In this document: positions 2,330 through 34,489 of the stretch, piece by piece | Layout of the letters: every line of letters starts with the position of its first letter | Position numbering within the stretch: position 1 is the first letter of the stretch | IMG/VR virus record: IMGVR_UViG_3300005611_000001 | DNA length: 64,000 nt | Direction: 5' to 3' (one strand) | From: a virus | Taxonomy: Duplodnaviria > Caudoviricetes | Position numbers and translations under genes: made by a program | Notes under the pieces: generated by a model | Database searches by the model: none | What the model was told of the DNA's origin: nothing | Seen by the model: the letters and a program-made list of their open reading frames with translations, nothing else

Positions 2330-2596
2330 ATGAAACCATTCAGTCAATACATTACAGAGTATAATGATGAAACTCTTGTGAAGAAGATAAAGCACCCTAG
2401 TGGGACCGTTTTAATGATCTCTCGCTACAAGAACGGACCCGATGAAGGTAAGTACATTGTTCGTGTATCCAAGAGTAATTATGAACGTGGAAAGCAGAAT
2501 CGCACGATGCGAGCTATACACGATAAGCCTCTCGATGCAGAAGCAGCCGTCGCCCTTTTTAATAAAAGAAAGAAATCGATCTGGAAGAAAAAATGA
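2330..2596 (+). CDS. Basic small protein with capsid-targeting-like N-terminus (putative internal head protein)
   Basis: MKPFSQYITE resembles the T4 internal protein CTS MKTYQEFIAE. Confidence 0.75.
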   Translation: MKPFSQYITEYNDETLVKKIKHPSGTVLMISRYKNGPDEGKYIVRVSKSNYERGKQNRTMRAIHDKPLDAEAAVALFNKRKKSIWKKK

Positions 2597-15345: not shown

Positions 15346-15708
15346 ATGTATAAAGATCATAGCGAAATCCCTGCTAAGTATCGCCGCTTGATTCTTGATG
15401 AGTTTATGGTCAAGCGAGTTTCGAAAGTTCCTCTGTCTGCTTGTAATGAGTTCATTCAAGAATGTCTTCGCGAAGAGACCGAGATGGAGAACCTCAAGAA
15501 CTACGAGGTGATTGTCTTCCGAAACGGTGCTAAACGAGAGTATAAATTCAAAGATTCTGAGTCGGCTTTTGTTGCATTGGACCGTGAAATAGGATATGAT
15601 GTACATGACTCGGCTTTGGTAGCCGTTCTCAAGCAAGCCGATCGAATCGTGCGGGCTTATGTTAAAGGGAAATGGATTGATGGACGAGAAAGCATTTACA
15701 CTATTTGA
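15346..15708 (+). CDS. Hypothetical protein
   Basis: GGAGG SD, 120 aa. Confidence 0.7.
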   Translation: MYKDHSEIPAKYRRLILDEFMVKRVSKVPLSACNEFIQECLREETEMENLKNYEVIVFRNGAKREYKFKDSESAFVALDREIGYDVHDSALVAVLKQADRIVRAYVKGKWIDGRESIYTI

Positions 15709-16213
15709 TGTGTACGAGTTCGCCCGAACTGCTCACGAAGGGCAGATTCGTAAGTACACCGGTGAGCCTTACATTAGCCACCCATTTGCGGTGGCTGAGT
15801 CTGTGGCAGATCATGTAGACGACAAGGTGGCGATTGCTGCTGCGGTTCTTCATGACACTGTTGAAGACACTGATGTTACTCTAGAGGAGATTGCTGAGAA
15901 GTTTGGTGACCGTGTTGCTGAGTATGTTTGGTATCTGACCAAGCCGCCTGCGTTCGTCGGTAATCGTGCTAGGCGTAAGTTACATGACCGCAACCGTCTC
16001 AAGGAAGCACCTGAGATTGTGCGCTTCATCAAGGTGATGGATGTGTGGCACAACTATCACGGTATTCGCGAGCATGATGCGAAATTCTATGAGACTTGGC
16101 GAGAAGAGGTTCGCGATCTATTATACATAATGGATTCGCTGATCATTGTAAAGCAGTTTGCTGGCGACGATTTCGCCTATAACGAGTTTCTACCCTGGTT
16201 TGGAGACCTTTAA
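15680..16213 (+). CDS. HD-domain hydrolase, RelA/SpoT (Mesh1)-like (p)ppGpp hydrolase family
   Basis: AHEGQIRK..GEPYISHP, AAVLHDTVEDT, IKVMD. Confidence 0.85.
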   Translation: MDEKAFTLFDVYEFARTAHEGQIRKYTGEPYISHPFAVAESVADHVDDKVAIAAAVLHDTVEDTDVTLEEIAEKFGDRVAEYVWYLTKPPAFVGNRARRKLHDRNRLKEAPEIVRFIKVMDVWHNYHGIREHDAKFYETWREEVRDLLYIMDSLIIVKQFAGDDFAYNEFLPWFGDL

Positions 16214-16485: not shown

Positions 16486-16670
16486 GCGCTAAATATGCTG
16501 TGAAAACACCCTTTGAAGATGATTTGTTATTTGTCACTGAGGGCGATTCTAAATTTCAACTACGAATCAAAACATTTAATACGGCTGAAGATGCACGAGA
16601 TTTTGCCAAAGACTTTGGTGAAGGCTGTGTTGTTGTCGAATTAGATGACGACTACGAGTTACTACTATGA
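16482..16670 (+). CDS. Hypothetical protein
   Basis: Coupled ORF, GTG start. Confidence 0.65.
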   Translation: MSAKYAVKTPFEDDLLFVTEGDSKFQLRIKTFNTAEDARDFAKDFGEGCVVVELDDDYELLL

Positions 16671-17077
16671 TAAAAATGTTGTGGCGAATTGCTGGGTTGT
16701 TCTTTGTTGGTTGTGCGTACATTGGTGCAATCGTGCCCGGTATTCCCACAACGGTCTTTCTAGTTCTTGCTCTGTGGTGCTTTAGTAAGAGTTCTGAAAA
16801 GTTACGACTCTGGATTTGGGAGCATCCTATCTTCGGTTCGTATGTGCAAGACTGGTCACATAAAAGAATATACCCCACCCGAGCCAAGTATATCATGCTC
16901 AGTTGCTGCGCAGCGAGTTACACTTGGCTTCTATACATACAACTCAAACCCATTGCTCTGATCGGCATTGCAGCGTTCATGCTGTTCTGGCTATTTTGGG
17001 CATGGCGTTATCCAGGTTCGCACGAAGAGTATGATCGCCGAGTAGCGCAAGGAGAAAAAATCGGATGGCTAAAGTGA
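16667..17077 (+). CDS. YbaN/DUF454 family inner membrane protein
   Basis: GAIVPGIPTTVFLVLALWCFSKSS...HPIFG signature. Confidence 0.85.
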   Translation: MIKMLWRIAGLFFVGCAYIGAIVPGIPTTVFLVLALWCFSKSSEKLRLWIWEHPIFGSYVQDWSHKRIYPTRAKYIMLSCCAASYTWLLYIQLKPIALIGIAAFMLFWLFWAWRYPGSHEEYDRRVAQGEKIGWLK

Positions 17078-18072: not shown

Positions 18073-18100
18073 AAAGGCGCCTTCGGGCGCCTTTTTTTTT
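18073..18100 (+). terminator. Rho-independent terminator
   Basis: AAAGGCGCC-TTCG-GGCGCC plus T run. Confidence 0.9.
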
Positions 18101-18106
18101 ATTTCT

Positions 18107-18114
18107 TATAAATA
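18107..18114 (+). promoter_or_regulatory. T4-type late promoter
   Basis: TATAAATA. Confidence 0.8.
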
Positions 18115-18154: not shown

Positions 18155-19087
18155 ATGGCTAATTTGTCGGGAAGAGAAATCTACAAATATCAGTTTCGTG
18201 TTGAAGTCTTTATTCAAAAGTACGAGACGAAATCTCCGTTTGAATTAGTAAGCGGAAAGAAGATCGAACTTGTAAAAGACAATAATGTTATTAAAGCATT
18301 AAAAGAACAGAGAATAGTTTCAACCTTAAATTTGTTGGGTGTTGATGGTAATACATATAAGTTTAAAGACTTACTGAAATCTAGTGAGTTTGGGGGTAAA
18401 GGCGCTGGTGGTTCGACGATTAAGGAAGATCGTGAACTTATGTCTTTACGCGATCAGTTAGAAGCGATAAAAAAAGAAATTAAAAGTGTGACAGTGCCTA
18501 TTCAAATTGGAAATAAAACATATCATGCAGAAGGTGCTGAGTCAACACCAGGAACACCAAAGTCGGACTTTCACTTGTTGGACAAAGACGGTAAAGAAAT
18601 AGTTTGGATATCACACAAAGACGGTAGTCGCCCAAACGACTTTCAACAATGGGGCGGTATATCAGAAAGAAAAGAACCTAAAATATTTAAACATCGTGAA
18701 ACGCAGAAGTTCATTAACGATCTAAAAGAAATGTATCCCGACGGTTTGCCAAGAGCAACTTCGCTGTACAGAAAAATTGAAGACAAGAATTTGAAAATGT
18801 TGTCTGTGTATGGTAATGAATACGGTGGGCGATTGAGTAGACAGAACTGTACGATACTGATTCAGGGGCCTGTAAAATTAGTAAAGAAAAACAAAGTGTA
18901 TGTTTTCGAATCAAATCACATACACGCAAATGGAGAGTCTGTAGACTCAGGTGGTTTTGAACCAGTTTTCATGGCAATCTACAAAGGCGATCGAAGTGAC
19001 GCTGGTGTAAAAGGGACTCGTATCGTAATCATGCCCATTCAAGGGCGTAAAGCGAAACAATTTACTAAAGACAAGATGGTAATCTAA
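18155..19087 (+). CDS. PD-(D/E)xK-like nuclease-fold protein
   Basis: TPKSDF...WISHKDG resembles a restriction-endonuclease active site. Confidence 0.55.
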   Translation: MANLSGREIYKYQFRVEVFIQKYETKSPFELVSGKKIELVKDNNVIKALKEQRIVSTLNLLGVDGNTYKFKDLLKSSEFGGKGAGGSTIKEDRELMSLRDQLEAIKKEIKSVTVPIQIGNKTYHAEGAESTPGTPKSDFHLLDKDGKEIVWISHKDGSRPNDFQQWGGISERKEPKIFKHRETQKFINDLKEMYPDGLPRATSLYRKIEDKNLKMLSVYGNEYGGRLSRQNCTILIQGPVKLVKKNKVYVFESNHIHANGESVDSGGFEPVFMAIYKGDRSDAGVKGTRIVIMPIQGRKAKQFTKDKMVI

Positions 19088-19160
19088 TGAGTGATAATAA
19101 GACAACCCTTGCTGATTTTTTCAAAGCAATTGCTGAAGAAAAAAGGAGGTTAAGCCGATT

Positions 19161-20387
19161 ATGTTTGATTCTTTTCAACAGTTCATAACAGAACAAAAAA
19201 ATACTCATATGACACATATTGAGGATAAAGTTCTGTACGGCGGTGTTAACGGGACTCGTCAAGCAATTCTTGCTTTGCGTGAGTTGCGTGACATGCTAGC
19301 AGGTAGTAAACAGAGCAAAGTGTCTGTGAAGTGGGACGGAGCACCCGCCATCTTCGCAGGCACTGACCCTCGTGACGGTAAGTTCTTTGTAGCAAAGAAA
19401 GGCATCTTCAATAAGAATCCCAAAGTCTATAAGACAGCCGCAGAAATTGACGCAGACACTTCGGGTGATCTTGCAACTAAACTGAAAGACGCTTTGACTT
19501 ATCTTCCTGAACTTGGTATTAAGGGAGTGATTCAGGGTGATTTTCTTTTTGGAAAAGGCGATCTTGCAAAAAAAAAGATCGACGGTAACACATATGTTAC
19601 TTTCCATCCAAATACCATTGTATATGCAGTGCCTGTAGATCAAGCAAAAGATATTCTTCAAGCAAAGATCGGTATTGTATGGCACACTACATATACTGGT
19701 AACACTTTCGAAACTATGAAGGCTTCGTATGGTGTGAATGTAAGACAACTTAAAGCTAGCAAAAATGTATGGTCGCAGGATGCAATGCTTCGCAATGTTC
19801 AGAATGCGACTTTGACTAAAAGTGAAACGGAGACAGTAAATGAATATCTTTCGCAAATTGGTAAACTTTTTAACTCCATCAGTGGCACAACCCTCAGAGC
19901 CCTTGAAGGAAATCCAACCCTCGCCCAGCACATTGAGCAATACAACAACACCTTCGTCCGTGCCGGCACCGTCATTGGAAACTCCCAAGCCCACACCACA
20001 AAGCTCGTCCGCTGGATCAAAAACAAGTACAAAGCCGAAATCGACAAGCGCAAAACCGCGAGCGGCAAAGCCACGCAGCAGAAAAAGCTCGACGACCTCC
20101 TCTCGTTCTTCTCAGAGGAAAACAAAGCAAACCTCGTAAAAATGTTTGAGTTGCAAAAATTAATTGTTCTTGTCAAACTAAAACTTATAAATAAATTAAA
20201 CCAGTTGAGTAATCTTGAAACTTTTGTTAAAACACGCAAGGGTTTCAAGGTTACTGGGCAAGAAGGTTATGTGGCTATTGACACACTTGGTGGTGACGCG
20301 GTGAAACTTGTTGATCGTATGGAGTTTTCATACAACAACTTTTCACCTGATATTTTGAAGGGATGGGATAAACCAACGAGAAACTAG
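19161..20387 (+). CDS. Ligase/capping-enzyme-fold nucleotidyltransferase (DUF6267-like) with CTS-like N-terminus
   Basis: Motif I KWDG, motif III-like IQGDFL, motif IV EGYV, motif V KLV. Confidence 0.7.
   Translation: MFDSFQQFITEQKNTHMTHIEDKVLYGGVNGTRQAILALRELRDMLAGSKQSKVSVKWDGAPAIFAGTDPRDGKFFVAKKGIFNKNPKVYKTAAEIDADTSGDLATKLKDALTYLPELGIKGVIQGDFLFGKGDLAKKKIDGNTYVTFHPNTIVYAVPVDQAKDILQAKIGIVWHTTYTGNTFETMKASYGVNVRQLKASKNVWSQDAMLRNVQNATLTKSETETVNEYLSQIGKLFNSISGTTLRALEGNPTLAQHIEQYNNTFVRAGTVIGNSQAHTTKLVRWIKNKYKAEIDKRKTASGKATQQKKLDDLLSFFSEENKANLVKMFELQKLIVLVKLKLINKLNQLSNLETFVKTRKGFKVTGQEGYVAIDTLGGDAVKLVDRMEFSYNNFSPDILKGWDKPTRN
19840..20139 (+). CDS. Overprinted +1-frame Ser/Pro/Thr/Lys-rich protein inside the ligase-like gene
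   Basis: GGAG SD 7 nt before ATG; host-gene third positions switch to C over about 19873-20135. Confidence 0.6.
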   Translation: MNIFRKLVNFLTPSVAQPSEPLKEIQPSPSTLSNTTTPSSVPAPSLETPKPTPQSSSAGSKTSTKPKSTSAKPRAAKPRSRKSSTTSSRSSQRKTKQTS

Positions 20388-20388
20388 T

Positions 20389-20838
20389 ATGCTAAGTTTT
20401 AAAGATTTTTTAACTGTTGATTATACTCCTGGTATGCCAGAAGAAATCTCTTATGCTGCTATGAAGCGTAAGCGAGGGCGTATTGGAGAAGAAGCAGAGC
20501 AGACAGACGAAGCGCTTAACTTTGCGCAGCGTCGCCAGCGCGCTCGTATCATGAAGAAGTATAAGACCAAGATTGCCATGGGGCGCAAGAAGGCTATGCG
20601 TCGCACTGCGGACACTGGTCGTATTAACAAGCGCGCAAGAAAGCAAGCAATTAATCAAATGTTTCTCAAACTGTCTAAGGGTGTACCTCGTGATGAACTA
20701 CCAGCGTCTCGCCGTCAAGAAATTGAAAAGCGTCTTGAGAAGCTAAAGCCTCGTATTGAAAAGATTGCTCGTAAGCTGATGCCTCAGGTGCGTAAGAGAG
20801 AAAGAGAACGCAAGCAGAGTGCGCAGAGTCAGAAATGA
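20389..20838 (+). CDS. Highly basic protein with CTS-like start
   Basis: MLSFKDFL; Arg/Lys-rich after an acidic linker. Confidence 0.8.
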   Translation: MLSFKDFLTVDYTPGMPEEISYAAMKRKRGRIGEEAEQTDEALNFAQRRQRARIMKKYKTKIAMGRKKAMRRTADTGRINKRARKQAINQMFLKLSKGVPRDELPASRRQEIEKRLEKLKPRIEKIARKLMPQVRKRERERKQSAQSQK

Positions 20839-22262
20839 GCTTTCCATCATTTAAACAATATCTCGTAGAAGAACAGCGAGAGGTATTCTTCACCTTTGGG
20901 CGAATGAATCCTCCGACGATTGGTCATGGCAAACTAATGTCTGTTCTTGCCACTAAAGCAGGCAAGAACCCTTACAAAGTTTATCTTTCTCAGTCTTTTG
21001 ATCCCAAAAAGAATCCGCTCACATATGAGCAGAAAATCAAGCATGTGCGTAAGATGTTTCCCAAGCATGCGCGCAATGTTATTCTGAATAAGAAACTGCG
21101 CAATGTTTTTGAAGTAGCATCTGCGCTATACGATCAAGGCTTCAACAAAATTACTATGGTTGTTGGTGCTGATCGTGTCACCGAGTTTAAGACTCTTCTA
21201 GAGAAATACAATGGCGAAAAAGGTCGTCATGGTTTCTATAATTTCGAAAAAATTAATGTCGTCTCTGCGGGTGATCGTGATCCTGATGCAGAAGGCGTCG
21301 AAGGCATGTCCGCATCGAAACAGCGCGAGAACGCGAAGAATAATGACTTTACCACATTCTCGCAAGGCGTGCCTAACACCATGTCGAACAAAGACGCAAA
21401 GCGTTTGTTCAATGATGTACGCGCGGGCATGGGGCTGAAAGAAATGACCCAGTTCAAGAATCACATTGAACTAGAGCCTGTGTCTGAGACTCGTGAGAAG
21501 TTTGTTGAAGGTGAGTTGTTTAATGAAGGCGATAATGTTATAATAAAGAAAACTGGCGAGACTGGTTATATTCATCGTCTCGGCACCAACTATGTCATCA
21601 TTGCACTAGAAGAAGGAAATATTTCGCGTCAGTGGATTGATGATGTAGAACTAGACGAAGCAGGTTATGGCGGCAGTGGTATTCTGCGTGATATCGCACC
21701 TGCACTAGATCGATTCCTTGACAAGACCATCAACCGCAAGCAGTATGAGCGAGCGGTTCGTATGTTCCTTGATCTTCGCAAAAAGAATCCAAACGATGCG
21801 AGAAAAAATCTTGTCAAAGCAGCGCGGATCACAAACACAGATGTTCGCACACTTGACAAACTATTCCGCAATCTAGTTAAGAAAGGTAAGATGCCTAAGC
21901 ATCTACTCAACTACGAGCCTACATTTGTCGAAGAAGTTTCAAAAGAAAAGATCAATGCTCAGCCCAAGAAGCACACTGATCGCTGGTATAAAGATCAGCC
22001 TGAATGGGGTACTCCCGAGGCATCAAGAAAAGCAAAGAGCAAAGTTCCTGGTCAAGAAACTGCGCATGTCCACACCAAGTCTCCTATGAACGAAGATGAA
22101 CTTGACAGTGCAATGCAGCGCATTCGAATAGACAAGCAGCAAGATCGTGAAGCAGAGCGCAGAGATCGCGAAAGAAGAGAGCGAGACTATGATCGTATTC
22201 TTGATCGCGCAAGGCTCGCTCGTGCAAGACGCAAAAACCGTCAGACAACACCAAAAGTATAA
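20835..22262 (+). CDS. Cytidylyltransferase/NMNAT-like (HIGH-superfamily) protein with C-terminal extension
   Basis: FGRMNPPTIGH, VVGADR, MSASKQR. Confidence 0.85.
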   Translation: MSFPSFKQYLVEEQREVFFTFGRMNPPTIGHGKLMSVLATKAGKNPYKVYLSQSFDPKKNPLTYEQKIKHVRKMFPKHARNVILNKKLRNVFEVASALYDQGFNKITMVVGADRVTEFKTLLEKYNGEKGRHGFYNFEKINVVSAGDRDPDAEGVEGMSASKQRENAKNNDFTTFSQGVPNTMSNKDAKRLFNDVRAGMGLKEMTQFKNHIELEPVSETREKFVEGELFNEGDNVIIKKTGETGYIHRLGTNYVIIALEEGNISRQWIDDVELDEAGYGGSGILRDIAPALDRFLDKTINRKQYERAVRMFLDLRKKNPNDARKNLVKAARITNTDVRTLDKLFRNLVKKGKMPKHLLNYEPTFVEEVSKEKINAQPKKHTDRWYKDQPEWGTPEASRKAKSKVPGQETAHVHTKSPMNEDELDSAMQRIRIDKQQDREAERRDRERRERDYDRILDRARLARARRKNRQTTPKV

Positions 22263-22265
22263 ATA
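22258..22265 (+). promoter_or_regulatory. T4-type late promoter
   Basis: TATAAATA. Confidence 0.8.
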
Positions 22266-22295: not shown

Positions 22296-23435
22296 GTGAA
22301 AACTTTTAAAGACCTTTCTGAAAAATTGAAAAAAGACAAGGACGATCCCTGCTGGAAGGGATATGTTCAGGTGGGCATGAAAAAGAAAGATGGCAAAGAA
22401 GTGCCTAACTGTGTGCCCAAAGAAGGCGTAGAAGAAGAAAAAGATACGCACAAGACGAAAGATGGGCGTACTGCTAAGAAAGGTCTTTGGTACAACATCA
22501 ATCAAAAGAAGAAGCGCGGCGAAGCCCCTGCTAAGAAGGGTGATCCTGATTATCCCAAAACATTAAACATCGAATCTATTGAAGAAAAGGCTGTGTCGAA
22601 AGCACAGCAGCGTTTCATGGGTATGGTGCGCGCTAAGCAGAAGGGTGAAATGGACGACGCGTCTCCTGAAGTTGCTAAGGCTGCTGCATCTATGAGCAAG
22701 AAAGATGTAAAAGACTTTGCGAAGACTAAGCACAAAGGTCTGCCTGCTAAGAAAGAATCTGTAGAAGAAGCATTTTCTCCAAAAGAAGTTAAAATGGCTG
22801 TTGGTATTGCTTCTGATCCTCGCTACAAAAAAGGAAACTATACTGGTGCTGTTGAGAAAATTGAAAAGATTAAAAAAGGTCTTTCTAATCATTCTCAAGT
22901 GGCAGCAGTTCTCAAGCGCCAAAACGAAAATGTTAATGAAGCAAAAGTATCTGTTGGTGATCGCGTTACTCTTAAGCCTAACAAGAGTGTTCTTGATCGT
23001 TCTCTCATCGGTAAAGCAGGCGTAATCACAAACATGCTTGACGGTGAAGCAATGGTTAAGTTTGCAAATGGTCGAACAATTGCAGTTTCACCAAGCCATC
23101 TAACAGTCAATGAAGAATCTATGAACTTCTTTCAATTCCGTGAAGCACTCAAAGAAGCGAAGGGTTCTAACTATCAAATTTATCACAAGACTTACAGCGC
23201 TGCTGTTCAACATGCTGTCAATCATGTCTTTGATAAGATGGGTTACGAAGTCGACTCGCAAGACTTTTTCAATAAGGTCTCAAGCGGACCTCGTAAACCA
23301 TCACCGGGTAAGACCAACTCTTTCAGCATTGACCTGTTCGATAAAAGAACTGCAAAGCCTGTTCGTCAAAAACTTCACATGCAAGTTTATGGCATGGACA
23401 GTGGTAAATACGAACTGAACATGTATGTGGCATAA
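22296..23435 (+). CDS. Modular Lys-rich putative prohead core/internal protein
   Basis: CTS-like start, DPCWKGY...VPNCVP module, modules bounded by (I/V/L)xE. Confidence 0.75.
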   Translation: MKTFKDLSEKLKKDKDDPCWKGYVQVGMKKKDGKEVPNCVPKEGVEEEKDTHKTKDGRTAKKGLWYNINQKKKRGEAPAKKGDPDYPKTLNIESIEEKAVSKAQQRFMGMVRAKQKGEMDDASPEVAKAAASMSKKDVKDFAKTKHKGLPAKKESVEEAFSPKEVKMAVGIASDPRYKKGNYTGAVEKIEKIKKGLSNHSQVAAVLKRQNENVNEAKVSVGDRVTLKPNKSVLDRSLIGKAGVITNMLDGEAMVKFANGRTIAVSPSHLTVNEESMNFFQFREALKEAKGSNYQIYHKTYSAAVQHAVNHVFDKMGYEVDSQDFFNKVSSGPRKPSPGKTNSFSIDLFDKRTAKPVRQKLHMQVYGMDSGKYELNMYVA

Positions 23436-23710
23436 TGAAAACATTTAAATCTATTAGAGAACAGCGCGATAACGAAATGGAAAAGGCTGAGATGGCTGAG
23501 CAGCAACTCCATTTCATTTGCTATGCCGTAGACGAAATTCTTGAGTATGTTCAAGAAGGCGGTGAAATCGAAGAGTGGTATCAGAACAAACTGAGTAAAG
23601 TACACAGCGATGTAGAAGGGCTTTACTCTTATGTGCAAGGCGAAAAGCATCGTATGAAAAATGACGATGAAGACGATGACGACGATATGGTGCCTGGAAT
23701 GTATCGATGA
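23435..23710 (+). CDS. Acidic protein with CTS-like start
   Basis: MKTFKSIRE. Confidence 0.75.
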   Translation: MKTFKSIREQRDNEMEKAEMAEQQLHFICYAVDEILEYVQEGGEIEEWYQNKLSKVHSDVEGLYSYVQGEKHRMKNDDEDDDDDMVPGMYR

Positions 23711-24054
23711 AAAAATTTAGCGACCACAGAGCAGACGAAATCGATTGCGCTTGCGAATCAATGTATGAAGAATTGGTTTTCGAAGCAGCAGAGTATCAGG
23801 GTAAGAAAGTTACGCTGAACAATCCGTTTCGTACACCTGGTGGTCCTAAAAAGTTTTCTGTCTATGTCAAGAACGACAAGGGCAATGTAGTAAAAGTAAA
23901 CTTCGGCGATCCTAATATGGAAATTAAGCGCGACGATCCCGGTAGAAGAAAGAATTTTAGAGCTAGGCACAACTGCGACAATCCTGGCCCTAAATGGAAA
24001 GCAAGGTATTGGTCTTGCTATCAATGGCGAAGCGGCGCCAAAGTAGACAACTAA
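23707..24054 (+). CDS. Putative virion protein
   Basis: VKVNFGD...RRKNFRARHNC..ARYWSC. Confidence 0.75.
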   Translation: MKKFSDHRADEIDCACESMYEELVFEAAEYQGKKVTLNNPFRTPGGPKKFSVYVKNDKGNVVKVNFGDPNMEIKRDDPGRRKNFRARHNCDNPGPKWKARYWSCYQWRSGAKVDN

Positions 24055-24075
24055 ATCGGATGGAGCGATTGACGC

Positions 24076-24366
24076 ATGGCAACACGAGAAACACAGTCGG
24101 CGCGACTAGATCGCATCGAAGGCAAAATCGACAAAATGACGGACGCAATCATTCAACTTGCAAAGGTTGAAGAGAAGATTGCTGATCTAGAAGAGCGTCG
24201 AGAAGAGCAGCACGAGAGACTAAATAGATTATCAGGTAAAATCGATAACATCGAAAACAGTGTGACTTCTCTTGTCGAAAAAGTTGCTGTCAATCAAAAG
24301 ATTAGTTGGCTTGTGATCGGTGTATGTGTCGCCGCCCTTGCTGCCCAGTTTGGCATTTCAGTTTAA
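24076..24366 (+). CDS. Coiled-coil protein with C-terminal TM segment
   Basis: Heptad pattern then WLVIGVCVAALAAQFG. Confidence 0.7.
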   Translation: MATRETQSARLDRIEGKIDKMTDAIIQLAKVEEKIADLEERREEQHERLNRLSGKIDNIENSVTSLVEKVAVNQKISWLVIGVCVAALAAQFGISV

Positions 24367-24378
24367 ACGGAGAAAACA

Positions 24379-26121
24379 ATGAACTCTGAATACATCAAAA
24401 AAATTCAATCGCTTTGGCTAGAAGTGGTTGAAGGCAAAAAGAAGCTTGATCCTGTCGATTCGAAGGCTCTCAAGAAAGATTATGATGATCGTAAAGACAA
24501 AGACCTCGACAATGATGGCGACACGGATTCTTCTGACGAGTATCTTCACAATCGTCGTAAGACCATTGCCAAGGCGATGAAGAAAGAAGATACTGATCTT
24601 GAAGAAGCCACTGGCAAAGACATTGCTGCTAAGATGATGCGCAGCAAAACAATGAAGCCTTTTGCATCTAAAGTCGCTAAGATGGCTAAAGTTTCTGCTG
24701 GTGACCTTGAGAAAATGCTTCCTGATTATGTTTCGGGCGGTGAGATTCGCAAACTGTTTGAAGAGTCTGTAAACGAAGAAGTCTGGAAAGAAATTGAGAC
24801 TTATGCTAAGAAGCATGGCGGCATTGACAAAAACGATATGATGAAAGTCGCAATGATGCTCAAGAAGGGTGACCGTAAAGGCGCTGTCAAGTATGCTCGT
24901 GGTCTAGACACTGATCCTCGCGATTGGCTTCTAGACAAAATGGACGAAGCTGTTGAACTTGATGAAGTCTCTGCCAAACTCGCTCGTAAGGCTGCTGCGT
25001 CAAGCGCAGCAAAAAGTTTTGAATACGGCAGTTCTGCGTATGGCCCTGGTTCTGACAAAGAGACTGATCGCCTAGACAAGAAGGCTGATAAAGCCCGCGC
25101 TCACGTTCAGAAGCGTCAAGGTGATAAAGGTGTCAAGAAAGTCGATAGAATGACTGGTAAACTGATCTATGGTAGAAACGAATCTGTAAACCTTGACGAC
25201 CTGATTGATAACTTGAGCGAAGAACAACTTGACGAAATCTCTGCAAAGCTCGCTCGTAAAGCGGCTGCTGCTAGTCAAGCAAAAAGTTTTGAATACGGCA
25301 GTTCTGCATACGGTCCCGGCGCTGACAAAGAGACGGATCGTCTAGACAAGAAGGCTGACAAGGCTAGAGCGCATGTCCAGAAGCGTCAGGGCGACAAAGG
25401 CGTTAAAAAGGTCGACAGAATGACTGGTAAACTGATCTATGGTAGAAACGAAGCAGTTGATATCTCCACCAAATCTGTAGATAAAGCACTGTCTCATGAC
25501 TGCGCTAAGCATGTTGCTTCTGAGCAATGGGGCTTTGGTGAGTGCATCCCTGGTCAGCACACTCTAGTCGAGCAATCCGACGGTACTGCAATCGTGACTC
25601 ACTACGATGTGATGTTTGAGCATGGTGTTGAGTTTGATGTGCCTGTCGAGGATCTGACCATTCTTGTGTCTGAGTCTCACAAGCACACTGCTAAGAAGAT
25701 GAAAGAAGGCGATATGTCGAAAGACAAGGCTAGTCACGATACTGGCGGTTTTAGAATCTCTAATCAAGATGCTCAAGCAGCAAAGAAGCGCCTTGCTGAT
25801 CGTCTGAAGCAGCGTCGTATGAAGAAAGAAGGCGTTGAAGAAGGCAAGACTTACGGTGAGCGTACTAAAGGTGCTGCTAAGGCAGAGACCATGAAAGATA
25901 AGTTCAAGGGCAAAGCAGCACTAGACATGGCGAAAGATGCGAACATGGACAACCCTGAACTTGCGGCTGATGATGCAAAGGGGCATGAAGATGCAACCAA
26001 AGCAGGTCGTGCAGTGAAAGGTCAAGCACCTATGCGCCCTGGTGAAACTCGCGTCGGCGATAAGAACATCGTAAACCCCGTTAAGGGTGCAGTAACCCGC
26101 ACTACAGGTAAGGAGGGATAA
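24379..26121 (+). CDS. Large modular putative prohead core/internal protein
   Basis: DLDNDGD Ca-loop-like motif, many LxE sites, internal duplication. Confidence 0.75.
   Translation: MNSEYIKKIQSLWLEVVEGKKKLDPVDSKALKKDYDDRKDKDLDNDGDTDSSDEYLHNRRKTIAKAMKKEDTDLEEATGKDIAAKMMRSKTMKPFASKVAKMAKVSAGDLEKMLPDYVSGGEIRKLFEESVNEEVWKEIETYAKKHGGIDKNDMMKVAMMLKKGDRKGAVKYARGLDTDPRDWLLDKMDEAVELDEVSAKLARKAAASSAAKSFEYGSSAYGPGSDKETDRLDKKADKARAHVQKRQGDKGVKKVDRMTGKLIYGRNESVNLDDLIDNLSEEQLDEISAKLARKAAAASQAKSFEYGSSAYGPGADKETDRLDKKADKARAHVQKRQGDKGVKKVDRMTGKLIYGRNEAVDISTKSVDKALSHDCAKHVASEQWGFGECIPGQHTLVEQSDGTAIVTHYDVMFEHGVEFDVPVEDLTILVSESHKHTAKKMKEGDMSKDKASHDTGGFRISNQDAQAAKKRLADRLKQRRMKKEGVEEGKTYGERTKGAAKAETMKDKFKGKAALDMAKDANMDNPELAADDAKGHEDATKAGRAVKGQAPMRPGETRVGDKNIVNPVKGAVTRTTGKEG
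24958..25452 (+). repeat. Intragenic tandem duplication, 225 nt (75 aa) unit, period 270 nt
   Basis: 24958-25182 and 25228-25452 both encode LDE(V/I)SAKLARKAAA...KLIYGRNE. Confidence 0.95.
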
Positions 26122-33339: not shown

Positions 33340-33759
33340 ATGTGGTATTATAATAATAAAATCTTTGAGCCCACAGAAGACGAGATATCAGCCTATGTGG
33401 GCTTTGTTTATGTAATTACTGAACTAGATACTAATAAGAAGTATATTGGTAAGAAGTTTTTCTGGGCGATTCGTAAGCTACCGCCACTCAAAGGGCAGAA
33501 ACGCAAGCGCATCAAGAAAACGATGTCAGACTGGAAAGACTACTATGGTAGTTCCGAAGAACTGAAGTCGCTTGTTGAATCAAAAGGTGGTGACGCATAT
33601 CGTCGAGATATTTTAAAATTATGTAAAACAAAGGGCGAATGTTCGTATTACGAAGCTAAATATCAGTTTGAGAAGGATGTTTTATTGCGTGATGATTACT
33701 ATAACGAGTTTATTGGTTGTAAGATTCACTCAAAACATCTGAAGACTCAAGATTTATAA
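33340..33759 (+). CDS. GIY-YIG-like protein
   Basis: FVYVIT...KKYIGKK, YYGSS. Confidence 0.75.
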   Translation: MWYYNNKIFEPTEDEISAYVGFVYVITELDTNKKYIGKKFFWAIRKLPPLKGQKRKRIKKTMSDWKDYYGSSEELKSLVESKGGDAYRRDILKLCKTKGECSYYEAKYQFEKDVLLRDDYYNEFIGCKIHSKHLKTQDL

Positions 33760-33762
33760 ATA
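33755..33762 (+). promoter_or_regulatory. T4-type late promoter
   Basis: TATAAATA before the P-loop kinase gene. Confidence 0.75.
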
Positions 33763-33787
33763 ACTATATCACTCACTGAGATAAGAA

Positions 33788-34489
33788 ATGTCTCCTATGA
33801 TTTTAAAATTCTCCTCTTGGATTCGTCATCTTGACGAAGGTGTCAATGATCCTGCAATCTTTAAAGCAGTGTTTCTTGCAGGTGGTCCTGGCTCTGGTAA
33901 ATCGTTTATCGTTGGTAAGACTGGTCTGCCTGCAATGGGCTACAAAGTCGTAAACTCTGACGATGCTTTCGAAGCAGCGATGAAAAAAGCTGGTATGACA
34001 ATGGATCCCGAGAATATCTTTTCTACTCAAGGGCAAGAGCTTCGCGGTAAAGCTAAGACTTTGACAGCAAAGAAGCAAGCGACATATATCACTGGTCGGC
34101 TTGGTATTGTCGTCGATGGCACTGGTAAAGATCCCGACAAGATTGCAAAGCAAGCAATCAACATGCGCGCGCTCGGTTATGATGTGGCTATGATCTTCGT
34201 CAATACCGATCTGGAGACGGCTCTGGAGCGCAATAGAATGCGCGAACGCTCTCTACCCGATGCAGAAGTCGAAAAATACTGGAAAGCTGTTCAGCGCAAT
34301 ACTGGGCGTTTCCAGCAGATGTTTGGCAAGAATAACTTCCTTGTAGTTGATAACTCTCAAGGCAAAGACTATCAGAAAGAAACTCTTCGTGCTTATCGCG
34401 ATGTTCAGAAATTCACTAACAAGCCGCCCGAGAATGAAAAGGCGAAGAAGTGGATTGATCAAGAAAGGCAGAAAGCAAGAAGAGATTGA
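33788..34489 (+). CDS. P-loop kinase (Zeta toxin/AAA_33/Pnk-like)
   Basis: GGPGSGKS, VVDGTG, ERNRMRER. Confidence 0.8.
   Translation: MSPMILKFSSWIRHLDEGVNDPAIFKAVFLAGGPGSGKSFIVGKTGLPAMGYKVVNSDDAFEAAMKKAGMTMDPENIFSTQGQELRGKAKTLTAKKQATYITGRLGIVVDGTGKDPDKIAKQAINMRALGYDVAMIFVNTDLETALERNRMRERSLPDAEVEKYWKAVQRNTGRFQQMFGKNNFLVVDNSQGKDYQKETLRAYRDVQKFTNKPPENEKAKKWIDQERQKARRD

Follow-up and report, generated by a model that had tools for sequence, protein, structure and literature searches.

Which proteins a T4-like phage may load into its head is the question raised by four adjacent genes on the plus strand, here called A, B, C and D, in the IMG/VR virus record IMGVR_UViG_3300005611_000001, of which a stretch of 64,000 nt was analyzed (hereafter the window, meaning this whole stretch of DNA). 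The known leader-loaded cargo of T4-type phages is small: inhibitors, Alt and basic filler proteins. In the window, the same loading system appears to carry two nucleotidyltransferases, a ligase-like enzyme encoded by gene B and an enzyme encoded by gene D that resembles the nicotinamide mononucleotide adenylyltransferases (NMNATs). We put at roughly 0.6 the probability that these genes represent a T4-like internal-head-protein cassette, of which enzymes B and D would be loaded into the capsid, trimmed by a protease and leave the head together with the DNA. As part of this reading we infer that the proteins are packaged and cleaved in the window phage and are injected, and we likewise infer their substrates and any function at the start of infection. 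The features of the cassette are as follows.

18073..18094, + strand: terminator-like intrinsic hairpin that closes the upstream unit (9-bp GC-rich stem, then a T-run).
18107..18114, + strand: TATAAATA, T4-type late promoter consensus, 41 nt 5' of gene A.
18155..19087, + strand: gene A, open reading frame (ORF) of 310 amino acids, phrog_13937, function not assigned.
19161..20387, + strand: gene B, 408 amino acids, DUF6267, with motifs I, III, IIIa, IV and V of a predicted ligase-type (covalent) nucleotidyltransferase domain.
19161..19193, + strand: CTS-like (capsid-targeting sequence-like) leader of B, MFDSFQQFITE, ahead of the Pfam domain and disordered in the model.
19818..20207, + strand: helical insert of B of about 130 amino acids (residues 220-349) between motifs IIIa and IV, from the predicted structure.
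20186..20193, + strand: second TATAAATA late promoter sequence, inside the coding sequence of B, about 200 nt 5' of gene C.
20389..20838, + strand: gene C, ORF of 149 amino acids, very basic (Lys/Arg-rich), with a leader-like start.
20835..22262, + strand: gene D, ORF of 475 amino acids.
20835..20870, + strand: CTS-like leader of D, MSFPSFKQYLVE, following the pattern in the orthologs.
20871..21449, + strand: predicted HIGH-superfamily nucleotidyltransferase domain of D (GRxNPPTxGH, GMSASKxR), with a fold closest to nicotinamide/nicotinic acid mononucleotide (NMN/NaMN) adenylyltransferases.
21507..21671, + strand: KOW/Tudor/SH3-like beta-barrel of D (residues 225-279), from the structural scan.
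21672..22262, + strand: variable C-terminal region of D with an Arg/Lys-rich tail at its end, as judged from the sequence and the lengths of the homologs.

T4 encodes the capsid-targeting sequence (CTS) MKTYQEFIAE twice. Residues 4 and 7 of the T4 CTS direct targeting, while residues 8 and 10 direct processing (PMC9026906), and ten CTS residues suffice to load foreign proteins into T4 heads (PMC9026906; PMC3012670). The leaders of B and D match these key positions with a shift of one or two residues. A strict CTS-like pattern was identified at 3 of the 115 N-termini in the window (B, D and an ORF at position 2330), as compared to 0.13 expected by chance (P ~3e-4), and looser CTS-like starts were found in gene C and in the genes at 22296, 23435 and 23707. 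The strict pattern was present in 51 of 81 B orthologs and in 49 of 62 D orthologs, with the remainder mostly being near-variants. The orthologous leaders read M..F..[FY]ITE followed by the domain start QKNTH in B, and MI.SFK.YLVE followed by EE..FTFGR in D, and they are retained across orthologs that are only 40-60% identical. Leaders of the same type were also identified on unrelated proteins of related phages (homologs of A, B, C, D, E and G). A gp21-type protease (PF03420) was found in T4 and in all four relatives searched, namely Phage C48C1, Stenotrophomonas phage DLP_6, S-SM1 and a complete relative of 146.6 kb (G001), while its gene does not lie within the 64-kb window. Taken together, the sequence comparisons support the leaders as genuine, conserved, T4-CTS-like propeptides. 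The three starts to which the original prediction had drawn attention (MFDSFQQFITE, MLSFKDFL and MSFPSFKQYLVE) are present, and the strict pattern, which those of B and D follow, is enriched over chance and conserved in orthologs.

We compared the leader-bearing proteins to two published virion proteomes of cyanomyoviruses. The S-SM1 protein T4-GC190 was detected in virions with 25 counts (PMC3037559 Table S8). We identified T4-GC190 (SSM1_190) as a homolog of D with the leader MKKFSAFLNE; its neighbors GC1453, GC1454 and GC1455, the last with the leader MLSFKELQE, were also detected in S-SM1 virions. In S-CREM2, ORF154 was detected in virions (PMC10665884), and this protein is a D homolog with 37% identity and the leader MKNFSSFLTE. 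The B homolog of S-SM1, GC71, is leaderless and starts at the conserved domain, and it was not among the detected virion proteins; likewise, the leaderless DUF6267 gene of S-CREM2, ORF87, is not listed in the virion proteome. Over S-SM1 and S-CREM2, presence of the leader thus goes with detection in virions and absence of the leader with non-detection. D-family proteins are thereby supported as virion proteins in both proteomes. Because the cyanophage B proteins have no leader and were undetected in virions, packaging of B would be lineage-specific and not a property of the whole family, and in the clade of the window phage B has gained its leader. The original prediction that the cassette encodes head-packaged enzymes therefore held in part: the leaders are real and D homologs occur in two virion proteomes, whereas gene A is leaderless in the window and the B proteins of cyanophages are both leaderless and undetected. 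The cyanomyovirus core gene T4-GC190, which adjoins the DUF6267 gene in S-SM1 and S-CAM9, has been published as a virion-associated cytidylyltransferase, and the papers describe neither a targeting leader, an NMNAT-like fold nor a link to DUF6267.

The layout of the locus is consistent with a late operon. Genes A and B are separated by 73 nt, with AGGAGG 5' of B, genes B and C by 1 nt, and genes C and D overlap in ATGA. As originally predicted, a terminator and a TATAAATA element precede four genes on the same strand, with the ORF boundaries unchanged. The cassette would be transcribed late, as judged from the promoter consensus, which is located upstream of A, in agreement with the expectation of late expression, and conserved inside B. 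Six copies of TATAAATA were found in the window, all on the plus strand, as compared to 2.1 expected, and over the related loci 190 copies were located on the plus strand versus 7 on the minus strand. The copy inside B falls within the last 150 nt 5' of motif IV in 68 of 83 related loci, and in 62 of these 83 its distance to motif IV is identical (offset -76 nt). The preceding codon is ATT or CTT (Ile/Leu) across the loci, and the following codon is AAA, ATA, AGT, ACT, AGA or AAG (Lys/Ile/Ser/Thr/Arg), so that the amino acids around the element vary, while the T and the A that these two codons contribute to the promoter, and with them all eight promoter bases, are constant. Since the offset is kept and the promoter bases are held while the amino acids drift, there is good evidence that the TATAAATA inside B is a functional late promoter, predicted to drive C and D.

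Pfam assigns gene B to DUF6267 alone (E 4e-104, residues 14-395), without membership in PF09511, PF09414 or PF01068. The protein contains the motifs KWDG (57-60), QGD (125-127), EGYV (368-371) and KLV (382-384). In an alignment of 70 homologs with 36-59% identity, K57, D59 and G60 (KxDG), K80, D127, N151, Y155, H175, K339, E368, G369 and K382 were invariant, and these residues fall in the canonical order of ligase motifs I, III, IIIa, IV and V. Motif I in the S-CREM2 homolog reads KIDG. An AlphaFold2 model built on this alignment had a pLDDT of 93.8 and a pTM of 0.91, with disorder only at residues 1-10. In a structural scan (VIA) of 48,161 PDB representative chains, the top six matches were all RNA ligases, namely NgrRnl (Z 8.2), REL1 (7.9), Trl1 (7.8 and 7.7), T4 Rnl1 (7.2) and T4 Rnl2 (7.1), each covering 167-203 residues that correspond to the nucleotidyltransferase domain of that ligase, and more RNA and DNA ligases ranked below. 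Foldseek returned nothing significant (E ~0.1), and all matches with a probability of at least about 0.3 were ligases, mostly DNA ligases, with RNA-editing ligase 2 in addition. Three of the 70 homologs weakly matched PF09511 (best E 6e-4), and an hhalign comparison of the DUF6267 profile with T4 Rnl2 aligned EGYV with motif IV only, with a non-significant probability of 0.1.

Because the top structural matches are uniformly ligases, the motif residues are invariant and PF09511 is weakly matched by 3 of 70 homologs, we are persuaded that B contains a ligase-type nucleotidyltransferase domain, for which the Z-scores would be borderline by themselves. This bears out the ligase fold that had been proposed from the motifs, which are present, in order and invariant, and for which structure prediction and fold search return RNA ligases as the top six. 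We have not filed B under any named ligase family because the profile methods give no link. The protein is most likely a divergent covalent nucleotidyltransferase, which would self-adenylylate on K57 and seal or adenylylate polynucleotide ends. With the RNA ligases (T4 Rnl1, the Trl1 ligase domain, T4 Rnl2, REL1, NgrRnl/DraRnl) it shares the predicted nucleotidyltransferase-domain fold as well as motifs I (KxDG), III, IIIa, IV (EGxV) and V, which are invariant and follow one another in the same order, and some B homologs also resemble Trl1 in being fused to a P-loop kinase. Unlike these ligases, B has no significant profile match and neither an Rnl-type C-domain nor an OB domain, its motifs IIIa and IV are separated by the helical insert of 130 residues, and its motif V has a single Lys. 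The sole non-generic match to the insert (residues 220-349) was weak and YqeY/GatB-tail-like (residues 243-317, Z 6.4-7.0); it may be a chance match, as the insert is a helical bundle. The YqeY fold is also that of the tRNA-binding tail domain of GatB. A capping enzyme was considered for B and set aside, with none found among the top 50 structural matches.

Phage records and PHROGs 395 and 3041 name gene D a cytidyltransferase. Thousands of metagenomic proteins show high conservation of its first 215 residues, while their total length ranges from 264 to 629 amino acids. The TIGH motif is located at residues 28-31, and the invariant residues include G22, R23, N25, P26, P27, T28, G30 and H31 (GRxNPPTxGH), D113-R114, R148-D149-P150, S159, K162 and R164. 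The start GRxNPPxxGH resembles the archaeal-type motif GRFQPxHxGH. A model of residues 1-300 (pLDDT 88.5) was matched by Foldseek with probability 1.0 to NadD, human NMNAT and PPAT. In the structural scan the best scores were obtained for NadM (Z 12.7), M. jannaschii NMNAT (12.6), NadD (11-12), PPAT (11.0), NadR (10.6) and TmcAL (10.2), while the cytidylyltransferases had Z 8.5-9.5, all below NMNAT, NadD, PPAT, NadR and TmcAL. The barrel at residues 225-279 matched the PHF19 Tudor domain, NusG KOW, DSIF KOW6-7 and Hpy99I (Z 7.2-8.2, root-mean-square deviation 1.0-1.3). No NCBIfam match was obtained for D, and the best hit in a profile search of the PDB was a plant NMNAT with E 0.7. Searches of PDB sequences with the single proteins A, B and D likewise returned no significant match.

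Since NadM, NMNAT, NadD and PPAT rank above the cytidylyltransferases, we consider D to be, on the evidence of its model, a HIGH-type adenylyltransferase-like enzyme closest to NMNATs, a fold from which the substrate is not readable. The original prediction of an NMNAT-like transferase from the TIGH core agrees with this ranking. D shares with the NMN/NaMN adenylyltransferases (NadM, archaeal NMNAT, NadD, NadR), of which the NMNATs are its best structural neighbors, the HIGH Rossmann-like fold and the (T/H)xGH and SxxxxR-type motifs. It differs from them in having no equivalog or Pfam-threshold match and in that D-family proteins are virion proteins, as seen in other phages. Compared to both these enzymes and the NAD+ salvage enzymes of phages (NARP2 type), D has a KOW-like barrel and a basic tail instead of Nudix or kinase domains, and most relatives have no NAMPT partner.

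Gene C probably encodes a basic DNA-associated internal (filler) protein. Gene A of the window has no capsid-targeting leader and starts with a sequence of the MANLS/MASLS type, as in DLP_6 and S-CAM9, while its orthologs at five related loci (L041, L043, L045, L046, L076) begin with CTS-like leaders such as MLSFKSFIVE and MLNFKEYLKE. Gain and loss of the leader hence seem to be frequent. A profile search of the PDB gave no match for gene A. Its language-model neighbors include clusters in which 10-14% of the members carry PF11463 or PF09208, a weak lead to HinP1I/MspI, and D138...S153-H154-K155 is invariant in nine homologs. Gene A may therefore encode a PD-(S/Q/N)xK endonuclease, with the language-model lead and the conserved D138...S153-H-K155 pattern as the sole indications of the nuclease fold originally attributed to it.

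By protein searches, the window belongs to a T4-like myovirus of the Kyanoviridae type, while a near-identity DNA search of the phage collection gave no match to the window. B is 69% identical to its homolog in Phage C48C1, 48% in DLP_6, 46% in Methylophilales phage Melnitz, and about 37% in pelagiphage HTVC008M and many cyanomyoviruses. In total, 468 phage records matched B, which appears to be near-universal in Kyanoviridae-type phages. The close homologs number at least 8,000 for B and at least 8,000 for D, and DUF6267 comprises 2,554 representative clusters (50% identity; E up to 1e-3). In the bacterial and archaeal genome collection, nearly all matches to the B family were located on metagenome-assembled contigs, many of which are short or of phage-genome size, and not on isolate chromosomes, for which reason the family looks phage-borne. 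The DUF6267 homolog of G001 (locus L024, 38619-39776) has one in-frame TAG inside the match.

We also compared the gene order at 84 loci, 80 from IMG/VR and 4 from reference phages. Genes B, C and D were present in this order at 42 of the 84 loci, the commonest arrangement where the flank suffices. DLP_6 retains all four genes in the order A-B-C-D and C48C1 the order B-C-D, and in S-CAM9 and S-SM1 gene D is located directly 3' of B. Fusions of DUF6267 with PF01467 were identified with B first (P0245, P0288, P0346, P0350) and with D first (P0360, P0315), and phrog_455 spans both domains. A joint function of B and D is suggested by their conserved adjacency and by fusions of either order. The fusions were initially considered as proof of a shared chemistry, and this was downgraded, since co-packaged modules may fuse as protease-cleavable polyproteins.

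In the proposed mechanism, transcription late in infection would start from the TATAAATA elements 5' of A and inside B, and B, D and probably C would carry at their N-terminus, when synthesized, a propeptide of about 11 residues that mimics the T4 CTS: aromatic residues would correspond to T4 residues 4 and 7, an aliphatic residue to T4 residue 8 and a Glu to T4 residue 10. By analogy with the T4 internal proteins IPI-III, the propeptide would dock the proteins on the scaffolding core of the prohead, after which a gp21-type protease would cut behind the Glu, and the mature proteins would stay with the DNA and exit at infection. The cassette would thus share with T4 IPI-III and Alt the late expression (here based on the promoter consensus), a propeptide of about ten residues that agrees in its key positions and has a Glu ahead of the cleavage site, as well as partner proteins of basic character, variation of the gene set from one related phage to the next and, in the relatives, a gp21-type protease. 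It differs from T4 in that the cargo consists of predicted ligase-fold and NMNAT-like enzymes, as compared to a restriction inhibitor (IPI) and an ADP-ribosyltransferase (Alt), in a shift of the leaders by one or two residues, and in that processing and injection are predicted here.

Outside the cassette, the following features were identified.

22258..22265, + strand: TATAAATA (consensus match) 5' of the next leader-bearing gene.
22296..24054, + strand: three downstream genes with leader-like N-termini, 22296-23435 (MKTFKDLSE), 23435-23710 (MKTFKSIRE) and 23707-24054 (MKKFSDH).
33755..34489, + strand: TATAAATA at 33755-33762, then a P-loop kinase at 33788-34489 (Zeta_toxin/AAA_33) with a leader-like N-terminus.
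2330..2596, + strand: ORF of 88 amino acids, far from the cassette and without family match, with the near-perfect CTS-like N-terminal leader MKPFSQYITE.

As judged from their N-termini, the genes at 22296..24054 would continue the internal-protein cassette. Short modules of the proteins encoded at 22296-26121 recur in many PHROGs, among them the C-terminal portions of proteins named cytidyltransferases (phrog_764, phrog_22379), which fits a shuffling of modules among internal head proteins. Just 5' of the cassette are genes for an HD_4-domain phosphohydrolase (15659-16213) and a DUF454 membrane protein (16667-17077), both without leader. The kinase at 33788-34489 had a weak match to a polynucleotide-kinase PHROG and belongs to AAA_33, the Pfam family into which T4 Pnk also falls, while PDB sequence and profile searches and NCBIfam were not informative. 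In P0241 and L038, this P-loop kinase (Zeta_toxin/AAA_33) is fused N-terminally to DUF6267, whereas the window gene represents a stand-alone copy of the kinase. The kinase was not detected in C48C1, S-SM1 or G001, where the AAA_33 matches were short P-loop stretches only. Directly 5' of the kinase gene is a SegE-like GIY-YIG homing endonuclease (33340-33759; PF19835, E 5e-38), for the family of which the PHROGs label NAD synthetase looks like a mis-annotation.

Several results weigh against the cassette reading. The Z-scores of B are modest to borderline, given that the aligner guidance regards Z < 8 as possibly reflecting a common arrangement, and profile searches of the PDB and of curated ligase families link B to no ligase family. 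The model of B ends soon after motif V, without an OB domain or Rnl-type C-domain, and no virion proteome has so far shown a B homolog, with both phages tested having leaderless versions. The only Pfam match of D, PF01467, scored 20.9 bits against a cut-off of 21. The start of gene C, MLSFKDF..VDY, fits CTS positions 4, 7 and 8 and has no Glu at position 10. Co-folding of B (12-408) with D (13-285) gave a score of 0.00, which counts neither for nor against binding, and the B-D fusions may represent a polyprotein-style shuffling of co-packaged modules and not a shared chemistry. A reading in which the resemblance of the N-termini is no targeting signal and is a side effect of a shared region of translation initiation or of a duplication in the recent past, with nothing packaged in the window phage, could appeal to the missing cleavage Glu in C and the leaderless gene A. 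We nevertheless hold it to be the least probable of the alternatives, since the leader is kept across orthologs of 40-60% identity and across unrelated families, fits the functionally mapped T4 positions, and tracks virion detection in S-SM1 and S-CREM2. It is unlikely, too, that B is the DNA nick-sealing ligase of the phage, replacing T4 gp30 and acting in the cytoplasm in replication or packaging, with an incidental or secondary leader. Neither a canonical DNA ligase (PF01068/PF01653) nor Rnl2 was found in C48C1, S-SM1 or G001, and gp30, the product of a quasi-core gene, is known to be dispensable or missing in this group, with some marine cyanophages lacking it (PMC2993671). Such a role would also agree with the near-universal presence of B in Kyanoviridae-type phages (468 records), with the leaderless cyanophage B that is not listed among virion proteins, and with the DNA ligases as best-probability Foldseek matches. 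However, DLP_6 carries both a gp30-type ligase and a leader-bearing B, the more sensitive structural search favors RNA ligases, no OB or DNA-binding domain was identified in B, and B is located in a late operon here, whereas T4 expresses its replication enzymes early or in the middle period.

The enzymes could also be read, in line with the original prediction, as an injected counter-defense kit, in which B, possibly with the kinase at 33788, would repair RNA cut by anticodon nucleases, and D would independently restore NAD+ against NAD-depleting defenses. The RNA-ligase fold of B, with Trl1 and T4 Rnl1 among the top matches and the weak PF09511 signal, points in this direction, as do the kinase-DUF6267 fusions, which recall the Trl1 ligase-kinase architecture (9r3w, Trl1-LIG-KIN) and the T4 Pnk/Rnl1 pair, and the placement of T4 Pnk and the window kinase in AAA_33. 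D is closest to NMNATs, and DLP_6, which has a D homolog of 722 amino acids, also encodes a NAMPT (L002, 99852-100601; PF04095, E 2.5e-46). We regard this kit as a doubtful though arguable possibility, since no phosphatase or cyclic phosphodiesterase for 3'-end healing was identified in the cassette, and since Tpt1 (PF01885), like NAD-dependent ligase (PF01653) and Rnl2 (PF09414), was not found in the related phage records searched. The kinase was not detected in C48C1, S-SM1 or G001, and these three phages also have no NAMPT, so that an NMNAT alone could not rebuild NAD+ from nicotinamide. A very low probability is given to D being a cytidylyltransferase of glycan or surface modification, with a sugar- or polyol-phosphate as the compound activated, and occurring in virions only as a contaminant or structural moonlighter. 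This would accord with the database name of D (PHROGs 395, 3041), with PF01467 as its sole Pfam match, and with the many sugar-modification-like ORFs downstream, at 37-57 kb of the window, whereas the structural scan gave Z 11-12.7 for NMNAT, NadD and PPAT versus at most 9.5 for cytidylyltransferases. Moreover, the CTS-like leader of D is conserved and the gene has a late promoter, homologs of D were recovered in two independent virion proteomes, and it adjoins internal-protein-like genes and not glycan genes.

Leader-directed head loading and the presence of the cyanophage cytidylyltransferase in virions were already known. The ligase fold of DUF6267, the NMNAT-like nature of D and the CTS-type leaders on both enzymes appear to be new in the literature searched, as do the lineage-specific gain and loss of leaders and the embedded, conserved late promoter. 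The literature search returned no papers on DUF6267, and the RNA-repair literature searched has nothing on this family.

The present analysis provides DUF6267, a Pfam domain of unknown function, with a testable activity, lysine adenylylation and end joining, and corrects the widespread annotation of the D family as cytidylyltransferases to NMNAT-like adenylyltransferases. Aquatic viromes contain both families in great abundance. Since B occurs with a leader in the clade of the window phage and is leaderless in cyanophages, the function of the leader could be studied by comparing the two natural forms. A broader and rather improbable view is that DUF6267 is an unrecognized family of polynucleotide (probably RNA) ligases, near-universal in marine T4-like phages and forming a two-enzyme unit with the NMNAT-like enzyme, which in one large clade was moved into the capsid by leader gain, so that end repair or adenylyl-donor supply would be ready at DNA entry, before phage expression. 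If it is true that the enzymes act at entry, they would represent a new class of pre-made phage effectors.

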